From NCBI GenBank assembly GCA_027021705.1, contig JALUTT010000175.1, positions 1 to 21,925 on the forward strand: a DNA stretch of 21,925 nt, given 5' to 3'. Source of the stretch: Anaerolineae bacterium (GTDB lineage: Bacteria > Chloroflexota > Anaerolineae > S140-20). This document shows, piece after piece, positions 1 through 7,900 of this stretch (within the stretch, counting starts at the first letter, position 1; each line of letters starts with the position of its first letter). The notes beneath the pieces were generated by a model. That model was not told the origin of the DNA and did not search any database. It saw only the letters and a list, made by a program, of their open reading frames with translations. Made by a program: the position numbers and the translations under genes.

Positions 1-110
1 CGGAGCAGGAAGAGATAGTTGTCCCGAGTGCGGAAAATGGGTTGCCGATTGGCACCCCGGTTATAGATGTGGTAGTAGTGCCCCTGGACGAACTTGACTT
101 TGCGGGCCAT
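1..110 (-). CDS. REP-associated tyrosine transposase (RAYT)/IS200-like Y1 HUH transposase, 5' part only (runs off window)
   Basis: Not in the ORF track. Manual translation from ATG at 110 gives MARKVKFVQGHYYHIYNRGANRQPIFRTRDNYLFLLR. YYHIYNRGxNRQxIF is the typical N-terminus of Y1_Tnp/RAYT proteins. Strong SD (AGGAGG) just upstream, and a REP-like palindrome lies next to it. Confidence 0.85.
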   Translation of the reverse strand, partial: MARKVKFVQGHYYHIYNRGANRQPIFRTRDNYLFLL

Positions 111-129
111 ATCGCCTCCTTTAGGTGGT

Positions 130-162
130 AGGTGCGACGCACCTCCAAGGTGCGTCGCACCT
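130..162. repeat. REP-like palindrome, copy 1
   Basis: AGGTGCGACGCACCT-CCA-AGGTGCGTCGCACCT is a perfect 15-bp inverted repeat. Each arm is itself a 7-1-7 palindrome. GTAG at 128-131 overlaps its left end. It lies between the kinase stop codon and the RAYT start. Confidence 0.85.
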
Positions 163-167
163 TTTCC

Positions 168-2186
168 TCAGAGAGAAGACGTGGGCGACAGGCAGCACCG
201 AAACCCGCTGCTGCCGATCCGGTAGTCGGGATTGATCCTGATGCGATACGCGGAACGCACCCAATTCCGAAGATAGTACCACGAGCCGCCCCGCAGCACG
301 CGGTAGGTCTCGCCAAATTCAGTCCGTTGACAAGTGGTATGGGGATAGCCCTTGTACCAATCGGCGCACCATTCCCAGACGTTGCCGGCCATGTCGGCGC
401 AGCCGTAGGGGCTGTCGCCGGCCGGGCTGTAGGCTCCCACCGGCGTGGTGCGTGCCTGCCCTCCCCAGCCCTTTTTGCTCATTTCCCTCCACCACTTGTC
501 CCATTCGTCGTAGGTTCGCAGCGCCCGCCCGGCCCACTGTTCGGCGCTGTTGCACTTGCTGCTGGCCCACTTGTTCCCCCAGGGGTACAGCCGCCCGTCC
601 GTACCCCGGGCTGCCTTTTCCCACTCGGCCTCGGTGGGCAGGCGCAGGCCCGCCCATTCGCAGTAGGCCACAGCATCTTCCCAGCTGACCAGCACCACCG
701 GGTGATCCCCCAATCCCTGCGGGGGGCGCTTCCTTCTCCGGTCCCAGTTGTAGGGTCTGGCCCATTCGTATTCCTTGGGGTCCAGGTAGGGCACCCGGTG
801 GTCGGTCTCCTGGACGAAGCGGGCGTACTGGGCCTGGGTCACCGGGTAGCGGCCGATGTAGTAGGCCGGGAGGTCCACAGTGTGTTGAGGGGTGGCGTCC
901 ATATACCACTCTAGTTTTCCGCCGAATTCCTCGTGCCACCGTCTGGCCTCCTCCTCGCTGATGCCCATCGGGAACTCGCCGGCGGGGACCAGGCAGAACT
1001 CCATCCCCGCCTTTTTCCACCATACCCGCTCCGGGGGTTGGGGCAGGGCCAGCAGGTCGGTCAGGTTCTCCGGCGTGGCGATGACCAGGCCGGAGGGAGT
1101 GCGCTCCAGCCGGGCCAGGGCCAGGATCTCCTGGGCGCGGCTGTCCTCTTCCAATTCCAGCCACGCCTCGGCGGCCCGGCGGGCCTCTTCCCAGTGACCT
1201 CCCTCCACCGCCTGTTCCGCCTGCCGGCGCAGTTCGGCCAATCTCTGCGCCCGCGCCTCCTGCCTCCTTGCTTCCTCGAAGCGATGAACTATCTTGACGT
1301 GCTCCGGCTTCGCCTCCTGCCCCCTGCGTCTTGCTTCCTCTTCCTCCCGCTTCTTGCGCCTTGCCTCCTCCTCCAACGCCTCGGCCATCTCCTGGGCGCT
1401 CTCGAACCGCTCTTCCGGCTCGCGGGCCAGGGCGCGGGCCAACACCTCGACCAGCCAGTCGGGCACATCCGGTCGCAGGTCGCGCAGCCCCTTGCGGTGG
1501 CGCTGCGCTTTCTTGTAGGGTGTGCCGGTCAGCATCTCGAAAAGCACGCAGCCCACGGCAAAGAGGTCAGCCTGGGGCCAGAGGTAAGGCTCGCCCCGCG
1601 CCTGTTCCGGGGCCATATAGAGGGGCGTGCCGGGCGGCAGCCGTTCGGTCAGGGTGCGCAGGCTCTCCTCGCTCACCTGGGCCACGCCAAAGTCGGCCAG
1701 TTTGACCTGTCCCTTTTGGGTCAGCAGGATGTTGGAGGGCTTGATGTCGCGGTGGACAATGTCCCAGGGGTGCTCGTGCACCACCGTCAGAGCGTCCAGC
1801 ACCTGGCGGGTGATCCGGAGCACCTCCTCGATGGGCAGCGGCCCTTTCTCCTTGAGATAGTCGCGCAGGCTGGCGCCGTCCACGTACTCCATCACCAGGT
1901 AGTAGGCCTCTCCCTGGGCCAGCAGTTCGTAGACGTGGACGATGTGGAGGTGGTTGAACTGGGCCTGCACCCGCGCTTCCCGCTCGAAGCGGCGGCGGTA
2001 GTCGTCGAAGGCGGTGGTGGAGAGTTTGGGGTTGGCCGGGGAAAGTTCTTTGATGGCCACGGGTCGCTGCAAGCGAATGTCGTAGGCCCGGTAAACGTAG
2101 CCAAAGGCTCCCTCACCGATGAGGGATTCGATGCGATACTTGCCGCCGATGAGTGTGCCGGGGGAGAGGGTGAATGGCTTGGGCAT
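168..2186 (-). CDS. Ser/Thr protein kinase fused to a coiled-coil/TPR-like linker and a C-terminal FGE-sulfatase (SUMF1-like, C-type lectin fold) domain, 672 aa
   Basis: Hanks kinase motifs GEGAFG, VAIKE, HRDIKPSN, DFG and YMAPE. FGE motifs F.MG, P.H.V, Y.VT..QY, PV..VSW.DA.AYC.W, RLPTEAEWEKAARG, DMAGNVWEW and RGGSW...GFR. Start moved from 2300 to the ATG at 2186, which has an AAGGAG SD. Confidence 0.92.
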   Translation of the reverse strand: MPKPFTLSPGTLIGGKYRIESLIGEGAFGYVYRAYDIRLQRPVAIKELSPANPKLSTTAFDDYRRRFEREARVQAQFNHLHIVHVYELLAQGEAYYLVMEYVDGASLRDYLKEKGPLPIEEVLRITRQVLDALTVVHEHPWDIVHRDIKPSNILLTQKGQVKLADFGVAQVSEESLRTLTERLPPGTPLYMAPEQARGEPYLWPQADLFAVGCVLFEMLTGTPYKKAQRHRKGLRDLRPDVPDWLVEVLARALAREPEERFESAQEMAEALEEEARRKKREEEEARRRGQEAKPEHVKIVHRFEEARRQEARAQRLAELRRQAEQAVEGGHWEEARRAAEAWLELEEDSRAQEILALARLERTPSGLVIATPENLTDLLALPQPPERVWWKKAGMEFCLVPAGEFPMGISEEEARRWHEEFGGKLEWYMDATPQHTVDLPAYYIGRYPVTQAQYARFVQETDHRVPYLDPKEYEWARPYNWDRRRKRPPQGLGDHPVVLVSWEDAVAYCEWAGLRLPTEAEWEKAARGTDGRLYPWGNKWASSKCNSAEQWAGRALRTYDEWDKWWREMSKKGWGGQARTTPVGAYSPAGDSPYGCADMAGNVWEWCADWYKGYPHTTCQRTEFGETYRVLRGGSWYYLRNWVRSAYRIRINPDYRIGSSGFRCCLSPTSSL
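198..293 (-). other. Putative DGR variable region (VR) at the 3' end of the FGE/CLec domain
   Basis: RGGSW-YYLRNWVRSAYRIRINPDYRIGSS-GFR. The positions that are Asn (AAY) in typical DGR template repeats are NNY codons here (TAC TAT CTT AAT TAT ATC ATC AAT TAC ATC GGC AGC AGC). No template repeat or reverse transcriptase is in the window. Confidence 0.55.
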
Positions 2187-2251: not shown

Positions 2252-2284
2252 AGGTGCGACGCACTTTCAAAGTGCGTCGCACCT
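2252..2284. repeat. REP-like palindrome, copy 2
   Basis: AGGTGCGACGCACTTTCAAAGTGCGTCGCACCT matches copy 1 at 30/33 positions. The differences include a compensatory C-G to T-A pair. It overlaps the trypsin gene stop codon by 1 nt. Confidence 0.85.
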
Positions 2285-3102
2285 TATAGTTCATGACCAC
2301 AGTTGCGGCAGCGGCGGGCGTCGGCGGGCGATTCCAGGCGGCAGCGGGGGCAGACGACGGTGGGGGAGGTAGAGGCGTAGACAGGGGGCAGTCCGCCCTC
2401 TGACGGCCCTGATGGCGCGACGTTCACCACGTTGCCATCGCCGGTGATGATGATATTCCCCTCGGCGTTCCCGCCGATCTGGACGCTCCGCGCGTCGGAG
2501 GCGGGCGGTGGTTCAATTGGCTGGGAAACAGACAGGAGAGTTATCTCCGGCCACACCTCCTTCAACAATGCCGCCGGGATGCAGAAGGCGGCACGGACGC
2601 CGGAGGCCTGCTCGGCGCTCACCACCATCCCCACCACGCCGTGGACCTCGTCGTCCCACACCGGCCCCCCGCTGAAGCCGGGCCGGACGAAGTAGCCGGT
2701 GCCTTGGACGTCCTCGATTTGGAGCCAGCCGGCGTCGCCGATGGGGGCACGCAGCACGCCGGAGGCCCAAACGCCGCTCGGGTGGCCCGTCGGGAAGCCG
2801 AAGGCGCGGAAGGGGTGGCCCCAGGTTGTCTGGGGGGTCACCAGCCGGACTGGCTCCGCATCGGGCGGCGGGGCCTCCTCCGACCGCAGGACGGCCACGT
2901 CCCGTTGCGGGTCCCTGTGGACGACCCGGGCGAGGCGCTTGCGGCCTGGGGCGAGGAAGGGCCAGTCCAGCGCGACTTCGGTCGCCTCGCCGACCACGTG
3001 GTGGCAGGTGAGGATGGTGTCGGGCGCGGCCAGGAACCCCGCACCCACCACCCCGCCGGCCAGGCTGTAGATGCGGACGATGGCCTTCTCAAGGGCGAGC
3101 AT
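2284..3102 (-). CDS. Trypsin-like serine peptidase (Trypsin_2 type) with G/N/I/V-rich motif and C-terminal zinc ribbon, 272 aa
   Basis: Catalytic triad contexts LTCHH, RDVAVL and PGFSGGPV. C-terminal CPRC-x10-CRNC. GGAGG SD upstream. No signal peptide apparent. Confidence 0.88.
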   Translation of the reverse strand: MLALEKAIVRIYSLAGGVVGAGFLAAPDTILTCHHVVGEATEVALDWPFLAPGRKRLARVVHRDPQRDVAVLRSEEAPPPDAEPVRLVTPQTTWGHPFRAFGFPTGHPSGVWASGVLRAPIGDAGWLQIEDVQGTGYFVRPGFSGGPVWDDEVHGVVGMVVSAEQASGVRAAFCIPAALLKEVWPEITLLSVSQPIEPPPASDARSVQIGGNAEGNIIITGDGNVVNVAPSGPSEGGLPPVYASTSPTVVCPRCRLESPADARRCRNCGHEL

Positions 3103-3138
3103 AGGTTACCTCCGCTCCGTTTCGGGGAGGACGGCGCT

Positions 3139-3954
3139 CTATCCTACCCCGCACCTCACCACCTTCCACACCATCTCCTGCGTCAAGAGCCCCGGGTCTG
3201 CTCCCGGCCCCAGGAAGGGGCGCACGTCGTCCGCCACCCGATCCCAAGGCACCTCCTGCAGCCTCTCACACACCGCCTCCCGCCACGTCCTCTCCGTCAG
3301 CCTCGAACCGGTCCAGCCCGTCTGCCGAAGCGCGTTGTTGAGTAGGGTCAGATTGGGGGGAGGCCACCCGGGATCGCTCAGGTACCAGACCAGGTCGTAG
3401 AGGTCGCGCCCCTTCAGGTAGGGCCGCTGCAGGATAGCGTGCAGCTTCCCGGCCAGGAGCGAGGCCCGGTCGTGGTGCTGCAGGTGCAGCGTCACGTACC
3501 GTCGCACGACCGTCGTCTCCAACCCGGCTCCGGCCGGCGGGTTCGTATCCACCTCGACCTTGACCGCCAGCACTTCGTCCCGATGGGGGGAGAGGCCCAA
3601 TTCGTAGAGCAGCCCTGGGAAACGGATGAAGGCGCTGTGCACTACCTTCCGGTCGTTGACCTTGAAGGACAGGACGTACCCCTCGGCGGTCAACTCGGCT
3701 TCGATAGCCCGCAGGTAGGCGCGGAAGTCATATTGCTCCCGTGCCCGCTCCAGGGCGAAATCCAAGTCTTCCGAATACCGTGCACTGCCGTGGAGGAACC
3801 GCAGGGCGGTGCCGCCGTGAAAAGCCAGCGGCACCATCGCCCCGGCCCGCTGCATCGCCCCCAGGATGCGGGCCTGGAGGTACTCCCGCACCGCGTTGCG
3901 GGCCAACAGCGGCGTAGGTGCAGTACGGACCAACTCGGCCAAGTACTCCTTCAT
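3139..3954 (-). CDS. abiEii: Type IV toxin-antitoxin toxin, AbiEii/AbiGii-family nucleotidyltransferase
   Basis: FHGGTALR...RYSEDLDF, GKLHA and KGRDLYDL motifs. ATGA overlap with the upstream antitoxin. Confidence 0.9.
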   Translation of the reverse strand: MKEYLAELVRTAPTPLLARNAVREYLQARILGAMQRAGAMVPLAFHGGTALRFLHGSARYSEDLDFALERAREQYDFRAYLRAIEAELTAEGYVLSFKVNDRKVVHSAFIRFPGLLYELGLSPHRDEVLAVKVEVDTNPPAGAGLETTVVRRYVTLHLQHHDRASLLAGKLHAILQRPYLKGRDLYDLVWYLSDPGWPPPNLTLLNNALRQTGWTGSRLTERTWREAVCERLQEVPWDRVADDVRPFLGPGADPGLLTQEMVWKVVRCGVG

Positions 3955-4592
3955 AACAACCGGTACTCCTCCGCCTCGGCGCGGGCCAGGTCGGCGATCC
4001 GCTCTGCTGCCCGCGCCACCTTGGGCCGGTTGAACCTCTCGGCCATCCGGCGCAGCGCGTCCAGGTCGAGCCGGTCCAGGTTCTGCAGCCGCAGCTCCTG
4101 CAGGTACCCCGGCGCGTCACCCCCCGGCGTCAGGTAGACCAGGTCGAGCAGCGCCTTCTCCGGCGTAGCGACGAAGGCCGACTGGCCCGCCCCCAGGTCG
4201 AGCAGCCGGTAGCCGAAGAAGAGGGTGGGCCGGATGTGGCGGAAGACGAAAGCGCCCAGAGGGGTCTCCCAGAGGCCCGGCCGGGCGGTGGTCACGCTGG
4301 TGACGGTGGGAACGTACTCGGGGATGAGGCCGTAGTGGGCCAGCGCGGATTGGAGGCTGACGTAGGAGCCACGGGAGAGCCGGTTGGCGACGAGGAAGGG
4401 ATGGGGTTTGACCTTCCGGTAGGGCAAGGCAAGGGCGTAGAGGCCGCGACGGAGCTGGACGATCCGCCCGGCACGCACCCAGCGGGAGAGCTGGCGGCGC
4501 ACGTGGCGGGGGTCAACGCCCCCGGCCAGGAGAAGGCCCGTCTCGAAGACCGGCTCATCGCCGACAATGCGGAGCAGTTGCTCGAAAGTCAT
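3951..4592 (-). CDS. abiEi: Type IV toxin-antitoxin antitoxin, AbiEi-family transcriptional regulator
   Basis: N-terminal wHTH (LSRWVRAGRIVQLRRGLY), SYVSLQSALAHYGLIPE and ATPEKALLDLVY motifs. Start placed at ATG 4592 (MTFEQLL) instead of the ORF-track GTG at 4637. Confidence 0.88.
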   Translation of the reverse strand: MTFEQLLRIVGDEPVFETGLLLAGGVDPRHVRRQLSRWVRAGRIVQLRRGLYALALPYRKVKPHPFLVANRLSRGSYVSLQSALAHYGLIPEYVPTVTSVTTARPGLWETPLGAFVFRHIRPTLFFGYRLLDLGAGQSAFVATPEKALLDLVYLTPGGDAPGYLQELRLQNLDRLDLDALRRMAERFNRPKVARAAERIADLARAEAEEYRLL

Positions 4593-4598
4593 ATCATT

Positions 4599-4627
4599 AT
4601 GATGCCATAGATGGCAAATTCCCGCAA
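4599..4627 (-). promoter_or_regulatory. Candidate leaderless sigma70 promoter of abiE, overlapped by an inverted-repeat operator
   Basis: Minus strand reads TTGCGG-17 nt-(TGg)CATCAT-6 nt-ATG with no SD. Palindrome TGCCAT-AG-ATGGCA at 4603-4616. A second candidate, TTGTGA-16-TACAAT, lies at 4693-4720. Confidence 0.45.
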
Positions 4628-4761
4628 CCAAATTCACCGAAACGCGGAGGGGCGAAACGGCGAAAACGGGTCGGCGTCCTCTTGCCTATTCCATTGTACT
4701 CAATCCTGACCTTTTCACAAGGGGGCTGGGGGGGTAGAATCACTGAGACGGGGAATAAGCC

Positions 4762-4992: not shown

Positions 4993-7900
4993 GACCTCAT
5001 TTCAAGGCGCACCGGCAAGGGGAGGGCGTCGGTGCCGTCGGGGGCGACCAGCCGTTGGCCGCTGTCGGGGTCGTAGAGCCCCGCGCTCAGCGTGTAAACG
5101 CCCGCCGGCAACGCCCCCGGCAGCTCCAGCACCCGCTCGTCCACCACCACCTCCCCCGGCAACCACCCCGTCGTCGGGCGCATCCACCCCGCCGGCACCC
5201 CATCCGACTGGGCCACCATCTCCCCCCCAGGCCCCCGCAGGTGCAGGAAGACGTGATAGCTCCGCTCCATCTCCGCCTCCGCCCGCCAGACCAGCGTCAC
5301 CGTCAGCACCCCGCCGGGCTCCAACGCCACCACCGGCCCCTCCATCGGCGTCAAGTTCGCCCCCAGCAGCGTCGCCCGCCCTCCCAGCGTCACCCCCACA
5401 GGCAGGGCCGGCGGCGGGGCCTCCCACACCCGCGCCGGCGCGTGCAGGGTCAGCTTCCCCCAGGAGAGGGCGGCCCCGTCGGGAAGGACGAGCCGCCAGG
5501 TGTAGGCGCCGTCGGCGAGGCCGGCGGGGAGGCGGAGCAGGCGCTGGGCGCGCCAGAGACCGGCGGGGAGAACGGGCAGGGTGATGGGCCAGGAGGCGGC
5601 GACCTCCCCCGCGTCGTCCACCAACCGGAGGGGCACCGCCTGCTGCGCTCCTGCCTGCGCCCCCTCGGGCGGAGACCAGAAGAGGGTGACGAGGGCGGGG
5701 TCGCCGGGGGCGGCCTCGGCGCGGTCCACGGCGGCTCCCCAGAAGCAGGGGCGGTCGGGGGGTGGCGGGGTGCACGCCTCCAGCCGGTAGGGCATCGCCA
5801 CCGCTGCCGGGTCCCAGGGCCGGCGAGGGGGCGTCACCCGCACTTGGCCCAGGGTCAGCGTGGGGGCGGCCGGCTGCCCGGCCTCGTTCAACAGGCTGAG
5901 GGGGGCCAGCGTCTCCTGGTCGAAGACGGTCAGCACCAGGTCGTAGGTGCCCGGCGGCGTGCCCGGCAGAAGCTCCACCTCGTGGCTGTCCAGAGCGTAG
6001 CGGTCGGGAGGCCAGCCGGGCGTGGGGGGGTAGTCCTGGTAGCCCCGGGGCCGCCAGCTCTGCTTGGGGCTCCAGAAGAGCCCCTCGGGGCCTCGGACGG
6101 TGACCGAGGTCCGGTAGGGGCGGCCGGGGGGGGCGTAGGCCCGCCAGTAGAGGTCCAGGCGCAGGAGGCCGTCGGCCGGCACCTCCGCCGCGCTCCGGTC
6201 GTAGCCCAGGAGGAGCATGCCGTCGGCGAAGGAGCGCTCCAGCGGCACCTGGACGCCGGGCAGCCGTCCGTCGGCCCCCAGGCGGGGGTGGCGGAAGGGC
6301 GTCGCCCTCCGGTCCACCACCAGGAGCTTGAAGGCGAGGAGCAGGAGGCCCAGGAGGAGGTAGGGGCGCAGGTCCGGGCCGGACCGGTCCGCCTTTGGAG
6401 AGGCCGATGGCCCGCCCCCCGGCCGCTCCACGGCGACGGCGACGATCAGCAGGGCCAGGCTGAGCAGGGAGACGTAGGCGACGGCCCGGCGCAGGGGGGT
6501 GGGGCCGAAGGCGACCTCCAGGGTGTGGCGGCCGGCGGGCACCGGGAAGGCGATGAGGCCCGTGGGATCGGTGGGCTCGATGGGCACCGGCTCCCCGTCC
6601 ACCGTCACCCGCCAGCCGGGGAAGTAGAAGGCCAGGTAGCGGGCGGTGAAGGGAACCGGGCTCTCCACGACGAGGCGGGCCCGGTTGGGGCCGTAGTCGG
6701 CCTGGAGCAGGGCCGCCCCCTGGGGCAGGCTGCCCTCGTCGAAGCGGCGGATGGGCCGCTCCCCGGCGGCGTACTGGGCCTCCAAGGGGGAGCCGGCGGG
6801 CCGCTCCTTCACCCAGACCGGGAAGTAGCTCCCCTCGGGGTCCACCCCCACCAACCGGGTCCGGTGCTCGTAGGCGAAGAGGTCGTTGATGGTGGGGTTG
6901 GGCGCAGCCGGGCAGTAGCCGAAGGGCGGGTAGGTGAGGGGGAGCGCGGCCAGGATGGGGAGGGCGAGGAGGAGGAGGCGGGGGGCAAATTGCGAAGTGC
7001 GGATTGCAGATTGCAAATTGCGCAAATGGCGAATTGCGAATTGCAATCGGTCGGCGGTCGGCGGTCGGTCGTCGGCCGTCGGCCATCGGCCATCGGCCAA
7101 GGGGCCGGCCAGGAGCGCCAGGGGGAGCGCGGCCCGGCCCAGGAAGCGCCAGGGGAACTGGACGAAGGCGAGCAGGGGGAAGGCTTCCCACACCGGCAGG
7201 GAACTGCGGGTGCTCATCCAGACCATCACGACGGCGGAGAGGGCGAAGAAGAGCAAAAGCGCCCGGCGCTGCCGATCCTGCCGGCGGCGCAGCCCGACCA
7301 CCAGCCCCAGCGCCGCCAGCCCCACCTGGACCAGCCCCAGCTCGACGCGCATCGGCGGGTTCATCAGGCTGGTATCGAAGGCACGGGGCGGGGCCAGCGC
7401 CTCGCCCAGGGTGACGAAGTTGTAGTGAAAGTCGTTGTTGCGGGTGGTGCGGGAGAGGTGGAGCTGGACGTACCCCTTCTCCAGCACGGCCGGCGCCCAG
7501 AAGAAGGCGGTCAGCCCCATCCCCAGGAGGAGGGCGAGCAGCGGACGGCGCAGGGCGGATAGCGCATAGGCGATGGCCGTCGGCAGTCCGCTCTCGGTGT
7601 CCGGTGGTCGGCCGTCGGCCGTCGGCGGTCGGTAAAAGAGCCCGACGACGAGGACGAAGAGGCCCAGGAAGGGGGCGAAGAGGAGCGTCGAGATGTTGTG
7701 GGTGAGGGCGAGGAGGGCCAGGGAGCCGGCGCTGAGGAGGAAGGCCCACCGGGAGGGGGTGACGAGCAGCCGGTAGAAGGCCCACAGGACGAAGGGGAGG
7801 AGGGCCAGGGCGACGGACTCGGGCTGGTTGCCCCGCAGCAGCGCGTCGAGGAACTGGTAGGGGGCGTAGGCGTAGGCGATGGCCGTCAGCAGGCCGGCCT

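Follow-up and report, generated by a model that had tools for sequence, protein, structure and literature searches.

Is the 3′ end of a protein kinase gene from a hot-vent member of the Chloroflexota rewritten by a retroelement whose template and enzyme lie elsewhere? The question arises at one end of the window, by which we mean the whole 21,925-nt stretch of Anaerolineae DNA that was analysed (contig JALUTT010000175.1, here C175, one of the 183 contigs of a source bin that is 94.9% complete). A gene on the minus strand codes there for a Ser/Thr kinase joined to a domain of the formylglycine-generating enzyme (FGE) type with a predicted C-type lectin (CLec) fold, and the original prediction had proposed that its tail is the variable region of a diversity-generating retroelement (DGR). 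In a DGR, template-repeat RNA is reverse-transcribed with random bases opposite the template adenines and the cDNA replaces the variable region; template codons AAC/AAT, AGG, GAC and CAG become NNC/NNT, NGG, GNC and CNG, respectively. Our analysis upholds the proposal for the tail, on the basis of orthologue hypervariability with a restricted residue repertoire and of homology to the templates of related genomes. We consider it very probable that window positions 207-278, within a block of about 170-307, are a DGR-written variable region on a soluble kinase/FGE-lectin protein, and we are more confident still that the variable region was written by a DGR. The gene and its parts are as follows.

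168..2186, minus strand: Ser/Thr kinase-coiled-coil linker-FGE/C-lectin gene, with probable start at 2186 and stop at 168-170 (Pfam Pkinase and FGE-sulfatase)
1404..2138, minus strand: protein kinase domain, residues 55-299 of the 710-aa open reading frame (ORF) (Pfam PF00069, 173.9 bits, 5.4e-51)
195..998, minus strand: FGE-sulfatase domain (predicted C-type-lectin fold), residues 435-702 (Pfam PF03781, 203.5 bits, 5.7e-60)
207..278, minus strand: hypervariable core, codons 675-698 (YYLRNWVRSAYRIRINPDYRIGSS), defined by the orthologue comparison
170..307, minus strand: full block, which has a second copy in community contigs and aligns to relatives' templates (Logan contigs; loci L213-L220)

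A database search with the FGE part returned close orthologues of the same kinase-FGE build, with identities there ranging from 92% to 59%, and the window protein was aligned with 12 of them (alignment A1), the 12 most variable columns outside residues 675-698 being used as the control. The orthologue sequences are related, so that the p-values overstate and the pattern itself is to be read qualitatively. The window protein and its closest orthologue, P0001, agreed at 12 of the 24 residues inside 675-698 as compared with 606 of 627 (96.7%) outside (Fisher p=6e-11), and the comparison of strains about 97% identical elsewhere thus shows that the rewriting was recent. Columns with at least six residue types numbered 13 of 24 inside and 12 of 287 outside (residues 396-710), while mean column entropy was 1.84 inside and 0.64 outside.

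The nature of the residues points to a specific mode of change. The 24 codons that the original prediction had quoted between the GGSW and GFR motifs match the sequence exactly, and the thirteen NNC/NNT sites it had counted are present (675, 676, 677, 679, 685, 687, 689, 690, 693 and 695-698); these 13 sites are the NNY-type columns (Y being C or T) that show hypervariability in the orthologue comparison, and all of them are NNC or NNT in the window. Lys, Glu, Gln, Met and Trp (K, E, Q, M and W) are the five amino acids that no NNY codon encodes. They were absent from the 13 NNY columns (0 of 169 residues) but made up 54 of 155 residues at the control columns (p=1.5e-20), and by distinct residue types the counts were 0 of 93 and 21 of 78, respectively (p=1.3e-8). 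Other columns showed other limits: column 692 (GAC, GNC pattern) held D, G and V only, column 694 (CGG, CNG pattern) R, L and Q plus one T, column 688 (AGG, NGG pattern) R, W and G plus one K and one A, and column 680 (TGG) W, R and G plus one M and one E, the odd residues at these patterned columns coming from more distant orthologues. As judged from the alignment, the column repertoires are those to be expected if one or two bases change at random while the third base stays fixed.

Templates of this kind were found in related genomes. Fetched loci of at least 1500 nt were compared with themselves for direct repeats in which at least 80% of the mismatches were A in one copy. Five distant loci with FGE genes (L094, L108, L113, L135 and L176) gave template/variable pairs of 79-135 nt with 12-26 mismatches, which double as a positive control of the repeat comparison. 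Their in-frame templates, for example GGSWNNDNTDNFRCANRNNNKPDNRNNNNGFR and GGSWNNNPQNCRSAYRNYNNPDNANNNNGFR, follow the pattern GGSWNN..RSA(N/Y)R.N.NNPDN.NNNNGFR, and the template Asn codons coincide with the variable columns of the window. A search with one reverse transcriptase (RT) of these loci detected DGR-type RTs in 9 of the 40 relatives searched, one of the three same-family genomes among them. Next to six of these RTs lie templates, from class-level relatives, that align to the variable region of the window over 98-105 nt, with the L213-L220 templates covering window 198-302. Where the relatives' templates read AAC AAC AAT ... AAC AGG AAC AAC ... AAC AAC AAC, the window codons opposite are TAC TAT CTT ... 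ATC AGG ATC AAT ... GGC AGC AGC; the templates have AAT at 677 and AGG at 688, which explains the T-ending CTT at the former codon and the R/W/G repertoire at the latter. The target next to the RT is of the NACHT-FGE or TPR-NACHT-FGE type in three of these relatives.

A separate observation concerns the distant DGR loci. In L094 (3082-3144, 6286-6348 and 8480-8540), and behind both variable regions of L135, there are about 60 conserved nt (translated as PFALLSFYP...); they come after every variable region and again ahead of the RT ORF, and these elements probably use them for target recognition. Nothing like it was seen 3′ of the window's variable region.

Codon make-up, to which the original prediction had given weight, added less. 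NNY codons account for 18 of the 24 in the tail as compared with 339 of 686 (49.4%) elsewhere in the gene (Fisher p=0.02), but the encoded amino acids alone predict 17.2, and 6.3% of the gene's 24-codon windows reach the same count. NNY bias was therefore dropped as evidence for a DGR, in line with the caveat already attached to it that Tyr, Asn and Ile codons end in C or T anyway; the count by itself proves nothing. The excess of T-ending codons that had also been noticed is genuine, with 6 of 24 in the tail against 43 of 686 (6.3%) in the rest of the gene (p=0.004) and 2.05 expected from the amino acids, and it is the only codon signal left after correction for composition.

A second copy of the block is present in vent-community contigs. 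Parts of window 1-1500 are held by 12 hydrothermal-vent runs, of which X1 is the likely source, and the contigs of four runs were compared; this evidence consists of assembled contigs only, which hide rare variants, and stretches of the window without contig cover in X3 and X4 were left out of it. In X1, a 2183-nt contig at depth 65.5 equals window 98-1500 without a difference, while a second copy is found in record 3 (window 176-281, 14 differences) and record 4 (170-307, 17 differences), these template-like contigs having depths of 9 and 6. In X2, window 176-299 recurs with 15 differences in record 8 (depth 7.7, 1470 nt), and a 2110-nt contig of orthologue P0001 is also present at depth 10.1. 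From the window codons and the relatives' templates, 15-16 differences between template and variable region are predicted; the 14, 15 and 17 observed over widening intervals in two samples thus fit a cognate template and one invariant sequence. Read in the direction of the gene, record 8 holds 491 unlike letters, the second copy, 178 unlike letters and a copy, with a 7-nt deletion, of the hairpin that follows the kinase gene; it continues with window 121..1 without a difference and then 510 more letters. We regard the community second copy as template-like, although it may instead be the variable region of another target.

The hairpin itself had been put forward as a DGR feature. It lies in the following setting, together with a Y1 transposase gene of the type associated with repetitive extragenic palindromic (REP) elements (REP-associated tyrosine transposase, RAYT).

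130..162, no strand: perfect palindrome with a 15-bp stem and a 3-nt loop (DNA fold; dispersed copies)
2252..2284, no strand: second palindrome copy, between the trypsin-like peptidase and kinase genes (repeat search)
1..110, minus strand: Y1 (IS200/RAYT-like) transposase gene, first 36 codons, truncated by the contig end (a relative's Y1_Tnp protein)
2284..3102, minus strand: trypsin-like peptidase with C-terminal zinc ribbon, the upstream neighbour (Pfam Trypsin_2, 1.3e-20)

The hairpin exists as described, starting 5 nt beyond the TGA, and when folded as DNA it reached -20.8 kcal/mol (z=-8.2), with 0 of 200 shuffles folding equally well. Its 33-nt palindrome is made of two 15-mers, each itself palindromic, 18 nt apart. 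It need not be a DGR feature, as the same palindrome stands upstream, directly after the stop of the peptidase gene, and at five other loci, has a high depth in the community and lies beside the start of a Y1-transposase gene. The paired copies at the five other loci are at C52:12722, C105:219, C117:75218, C131:4248 and C137:11287, none of these contigs carrying an FGE paralogue; in the bin as a whole the 15-mer has 27 matches at no more than two mismatches, with paired copies at 7 loci. Depth over window 101-150 was 372-908 in four runs, indicating that the palindrome is a high-copy repeat in the community. Directly after it, AGGAGG at 115-120 and ATG at 110 mark the start of the Y1 gene, which is 76% identical over 37 aa to a 192-aa relative (Pfam Y1_Tnp, 2.2e-13); the 36-codon fragment itself matched no Pfam family, an atlas search gave only a weak Y1_Tnp lead (0.81), and no link was found between it and the genome's other two Y1_Tnp genes. 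The hairpin is best read as a generic REP-like repeat, which may or may not also aid retrohoming. It resembles the REP/RAYT arrangement in being an intergenic dispersed palindrome that adjoins a Y1-transposase gene, and differs from typical cases in that only about 7 paired copies are present in the bin and the transposase gene is truncated after 36 codons. In Bordetella phage, an initiation of mutagenic homing (IMH) element and a GC-rich hairpin or cruciform reportedly lie just downstream of the variable region.

The contig ends only 167 nt beyond the stop of the kinase gene. An identical contig is present in a metagenome collection, so the sequence truly ends at window position 1, and the Y1 gene or the repeat may explain the assembly break, because these 121 letters recur after the template-like copy. 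As a side observation, a DGR RT and a Y1-transposase homologue (40% over 35 aa) lie about 1.5 kb apart on contig C75 of relative G012 (3722-4738 and 6225-6329); this proximity may be due to chance.

A number of results weigh against a DGR at work on this gene. The original prediction had expected a template repeat and an RT encoded elsewhere to diversify the tail in trans, but the bin contains neither, and the only template-like copy is in community contigs. BLASTN with window 150-420 gave only short matches to conserved motifs of paralogues, blastn across the 183 contigs found no template repeat over the variable region, and in an ungapped scan for A-only mismatches the best non-self window had 46 other mismatches in 143. 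A six-frame search of the bin found no Asn-rich lectin-type tail. The sole RVT_1 gene in the bin adjoins cas1 (Pfam 1e-88): it codes for 307 aa, has a QG...SP type motif, stands immediately ahead of cas1 (C85:82697-84766; L009 1228-3297), and is a CRISPR-associated RT. The DGR RTs of L094, L108, L113 and L135, which match each other at 1e-33 to 1e-120, matched only this cas1-linked gene when used as queries against the bin (27-33% identity), and the window's own genome (G000) gave 0 DGR RT matches at E<=1e-25. A 34-residue RT match on C62 was rejected as the tail of an unrelated gene. Six genes of the PF05635 (Avd-type) family, which is common outside DGRs, are present in the bin, each at least 7 kb from contig ends and none on the RT contig C85.

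Points of the same kind come from the community contigs and the orthologues. The dominant haplotype in X1 has a depth of 65.5 and the template-like contigs 9 and 6 (15 in total), so that the template-like copy cannot be present once per dominant genome. Each of the six visible differences (211, 214, 235, 241, 263 and 275) is a change 'to A' when the coding strand is read, but this sample is biased, as only places with full share in some run are visible and these are places where the second copy agrees with the variable region of P0001; a second variable region would give the same six. In addition, only 12 of the 28 places tallied at 10% share over a 1500-base stretch in X1 are changes to T on the plus strand, so at most 12 of the 14 differences of record 3 can be 'to A'. 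The adenine-site and third-base evidence comes from orthologue protein sequences only. A search for orthologue DNA gave a best match of 51% identity among genome contigs and, among the matches listed for metagenomes, the window's own contig and relatives at 58-64%; the scaffold pattern in IUPAC code had 0 matches in genome contigs and in viral contigs. A short-protein search for template pseudo-ORFs or variable-region fragments returned 2 unrelated matches, and a second one a best match of 63%, among proteins of 82-263 aa. Because a template and an RT were searched for in the bin and not found, we filed the tail as a DGR-written (orphan or remote) variable region and not as a complete DGR.

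Two FGE genes on C178 (17501-17785 and 20940-21191, minus strand) have similar tails (GGSF......VRCACR....PD......GFRLVVARSL). They differ from each other at 41 of 144 nt, at all three codon positions (17/11/13), and no template for their tails was found in the bin. The pair was dropped as evidence for a DGR, since such differences resemble ordinary divergence; these genes may be DGR targets that decayed long ago, or simply paralogues.

Three other accounts were weighed against a DGR that still rewrites this tail. According to one, a DGR wrote the tail but the dominant strain then lost the cassette, possibly by recombination between the flanking REP-like hairpins, so that the tail is now frozen, a variable region of the fossil or orphan kind, and the template-like contigs come from a less abundant strain of the same community. 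The absence of a template repeat and a DGR RT from a 94.9%-complete bin is what this account would predict, as is the single variable-region haplotype at 65.5 beside template-like contigs at 9 and 6 in X1; in X2 the depth of the template-like contig (7.7) is close to that of the P0001-type kinase contig (10.1), as if the other strain carried both. It fits less well with a variable-region scaffold that is intact and in frame, with a count of differences to the second copy that suits a cognate template, and with strains that differ at 12 of 24 residues while being 96.7% identical elsewhere, which argues for recent writing; moreover, rare variants do not show in contigs, and a bin in 183 contigs, of which this one ends 167 nt after the stop, is not complete. 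We regard loss of the cassette as a serious competitor that falls somewhat short of an even chance, and we are evenly divided on whether a cassette still serves the kinase gene in at least part of the population.

The community second copy could also be the variable region of another target that shares the same template. By our estimate, two independent variable regions should differ at about 20 or more of about 31 sites, whereas 14-17 differences were seen, and the counts nest (14, 15, 17) across two samples as for one invariant sequence; in record 3 the copy, furthermore, is followed by 178 unlike letters and not by the window's last codons and stop, although record 4 matches to position 170. 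These points make a second target unlikely in our view, even though homology confined to about 170-307 would fit a second variable region as well as a template, the cis DGR targets of the relatives are NACHT-FGE proteins, several variable regions per template occur, and the limit of 12 'to A' changes in record 3 applies. Far less credible is that no retroelement was involved and that diversifying selection or recombination varied an ordinary FGE tail, an account we hold to be very improbable. Ordinary selection would not bar K, E, Q, M and W from 13 columns that hold 6-9 residue types each, nor would it set the variable columns exactly on the A-containing codons of proven templates; the columns limited to D/G/V or of the R/W/G type would be left unexplained, and T-ending codons are threefold over expectation. 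What speaks for it is that the NNY excess arises wholly from amino acid composition (17.2 expected, 18 seen), that the bin is without a template repeat or DGR RT, and that the 41 differences between the tails of the two C178 paralogues, which resemble the tail studied here, are spread over all three codon positions (17/11/13).

If the tail is a DGR-written variable region, as we prefer, an RT would copy the template RNA, placing random bases opposite its adenines, and window positions of about 170-307 would be replaced by the cDNA. The varied surface might bind a cytoplasmic ligand and so set kinase activity or substrate choice; alternatively, the protein may act as an intracellular antigen sensor. 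Kinase output might be set together with the upstream trypsin-like peptidase. The cassette could be a module that varies within the population and has REP-like hairpins and Y1 (RAYT-type) transposase genes at its borders; the template-like copy is separated by 178 nt and a hairpin from a downstream transposase gene start identical to the one that follows the variable region. If the hairpins recombined or were acted on by the transposase, hypermutation would cease in most cells but persist in a minority, and the hairpin on the side of the variable region might double as a cruciform needed for retrohoming. Taken jointly, these proposals are improbable.

The longest ORF of the kinase gene runs from 168 to 2300 on the minus strand (710 aa), but the start is probably the ATG at 2186, giving 672 aa, because orthologues P0001 and P0003 begin MPKPFTL; the extension from 2186 up to 2300 overlaps the repeat. 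The kinase motifs VAIK, HRD, DFG and APE are intact (residues 43, 145, 165 and 192 of the 672-aa protein), and no stretch resembling a membrane span was found in the kinase-lectin protein, the top 19-residue hydropathy being 1.22. Given the four intact motifs and the lack of any hydropathy value above 1.22, the product is predicted to be a soluble, active Hanks-type kinase.

The variable region (residues 675-698) ends 12 codons ahead of the stop and lies within the FGE-sulfatase domain. Sequence matches to PDB entries included CalU17 (7ml6, 2.6e-49), the FGE of 5nxl (2.1e-28) and other FGEs such as 1y1e (about 1e-26 to 1e-28), while the Treponema denticola variable protein 2y3c matched the C-terminal 100 residues, variable region included (1.1e-11). 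These matches support the assignment to a putative FGE/C-lectin fold. In the alignment with 5nxl, the C..C pair, which we take to be the catalytic cysteines of FGE, has its first Cys opposite the hypervariable Tyr676 and its second within an insertion absent from the window protein. Thus, the domain is shared with formylglycine-generating enzymes and CalU17 but, unlike in FGE, the C..C pair is not conserved, and the module, lacking the enzyme's cysteine pair, is predicted to serve as a binding surface. T. denticola TvpA (2y3c) belongs to the same fold family, with a match that spans the C-terminal 100 residues, and is a surface lipoprotein served by a nearby cassette; the window protein, unlike TvpA, carries a kinase and has no signal or membrane segment.

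The gene is a hot-vent Chloroflexota addition to the known class of kinase-lectin DGR targets. A study of conflict systems is said to belong with the work on sensors in which a STAND NTPase or kinase is joined to a CLec domain. Cyanobacterial Ser/Thr-kinase/CLec DGR proteins, both remote and DGR-internal, have already been described, and the account of them drawn on here proposes that they tune ligand or substrate recognition in signalling, considers cruciforms possible at remote targets, and defines a remote variable protein by homology of its variable region to that of the DGR variable protein of the same genome (PMC7517822). The window protein shares with the proteins of that account an N-terminal Hanks-type kinase, a C-terminal CLec domain and a variable region at the 3′ end; paralogues there are dispersed away from the cassette (PMC7517822). 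Unlike the remote proteins described there, it has a Chloroflexota host and an assembled genome with neither cassette nor template (PMC7517822).

In multicellular bacteria, STAND-NTPase/kinase-CLec proteins diversified by DGRs have been presented as 'putative antigen sensors', and filamentous Chloroflexi appear within the RT clade that diversifies them (bioRxiv 10.1101/2023.09.22.558884). Like the sensors of that report, the window protein combines a cytoplasmic signalling domain with a DGR-varied FGE-type CLec domain and has a trypsin-like peptidase nearby (bioRxiv 10.1101/2023.09.22.558884). Unlike the STAND-CLec sensors as presented there, its signalling domain is a kinase and not a STAND NTPase, and its bin is without an RT or template; the NACHT-FGE targets that stand beside a DGR RT in the relatives do resemble those sensors. 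So far, cyanobacteria and a purple sulfur bacterium are the main sources of described intracellular signalling proteins with sensor tips rewritten by a retroelement. Hypervariability among orthologues is by itself enough to recognise such a target where template and enzyme were lost from a bin or not assembled into it. That the target and the template-like copy differ in depth leads to the question of whether the mutator is carried by only part of the natural population.

The genes upstream of the kinase gene lie on the same strand: the trypsin-like peptidase with its zinc ribbon is preceded by AbiEii and AbiEi genes (2284-4637, minus strand), and the presence of this AbiEii/AbiEi toxin-antitoxin pair with a peptidase gives the neighbourhood a defence-like look. 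The trypsin-like peptidase may be a partner of the kinase-lectin sensor. The remainder of the window is occupied by glycosyltransferase, phosphodiesterase and hydrogenase-type genes.

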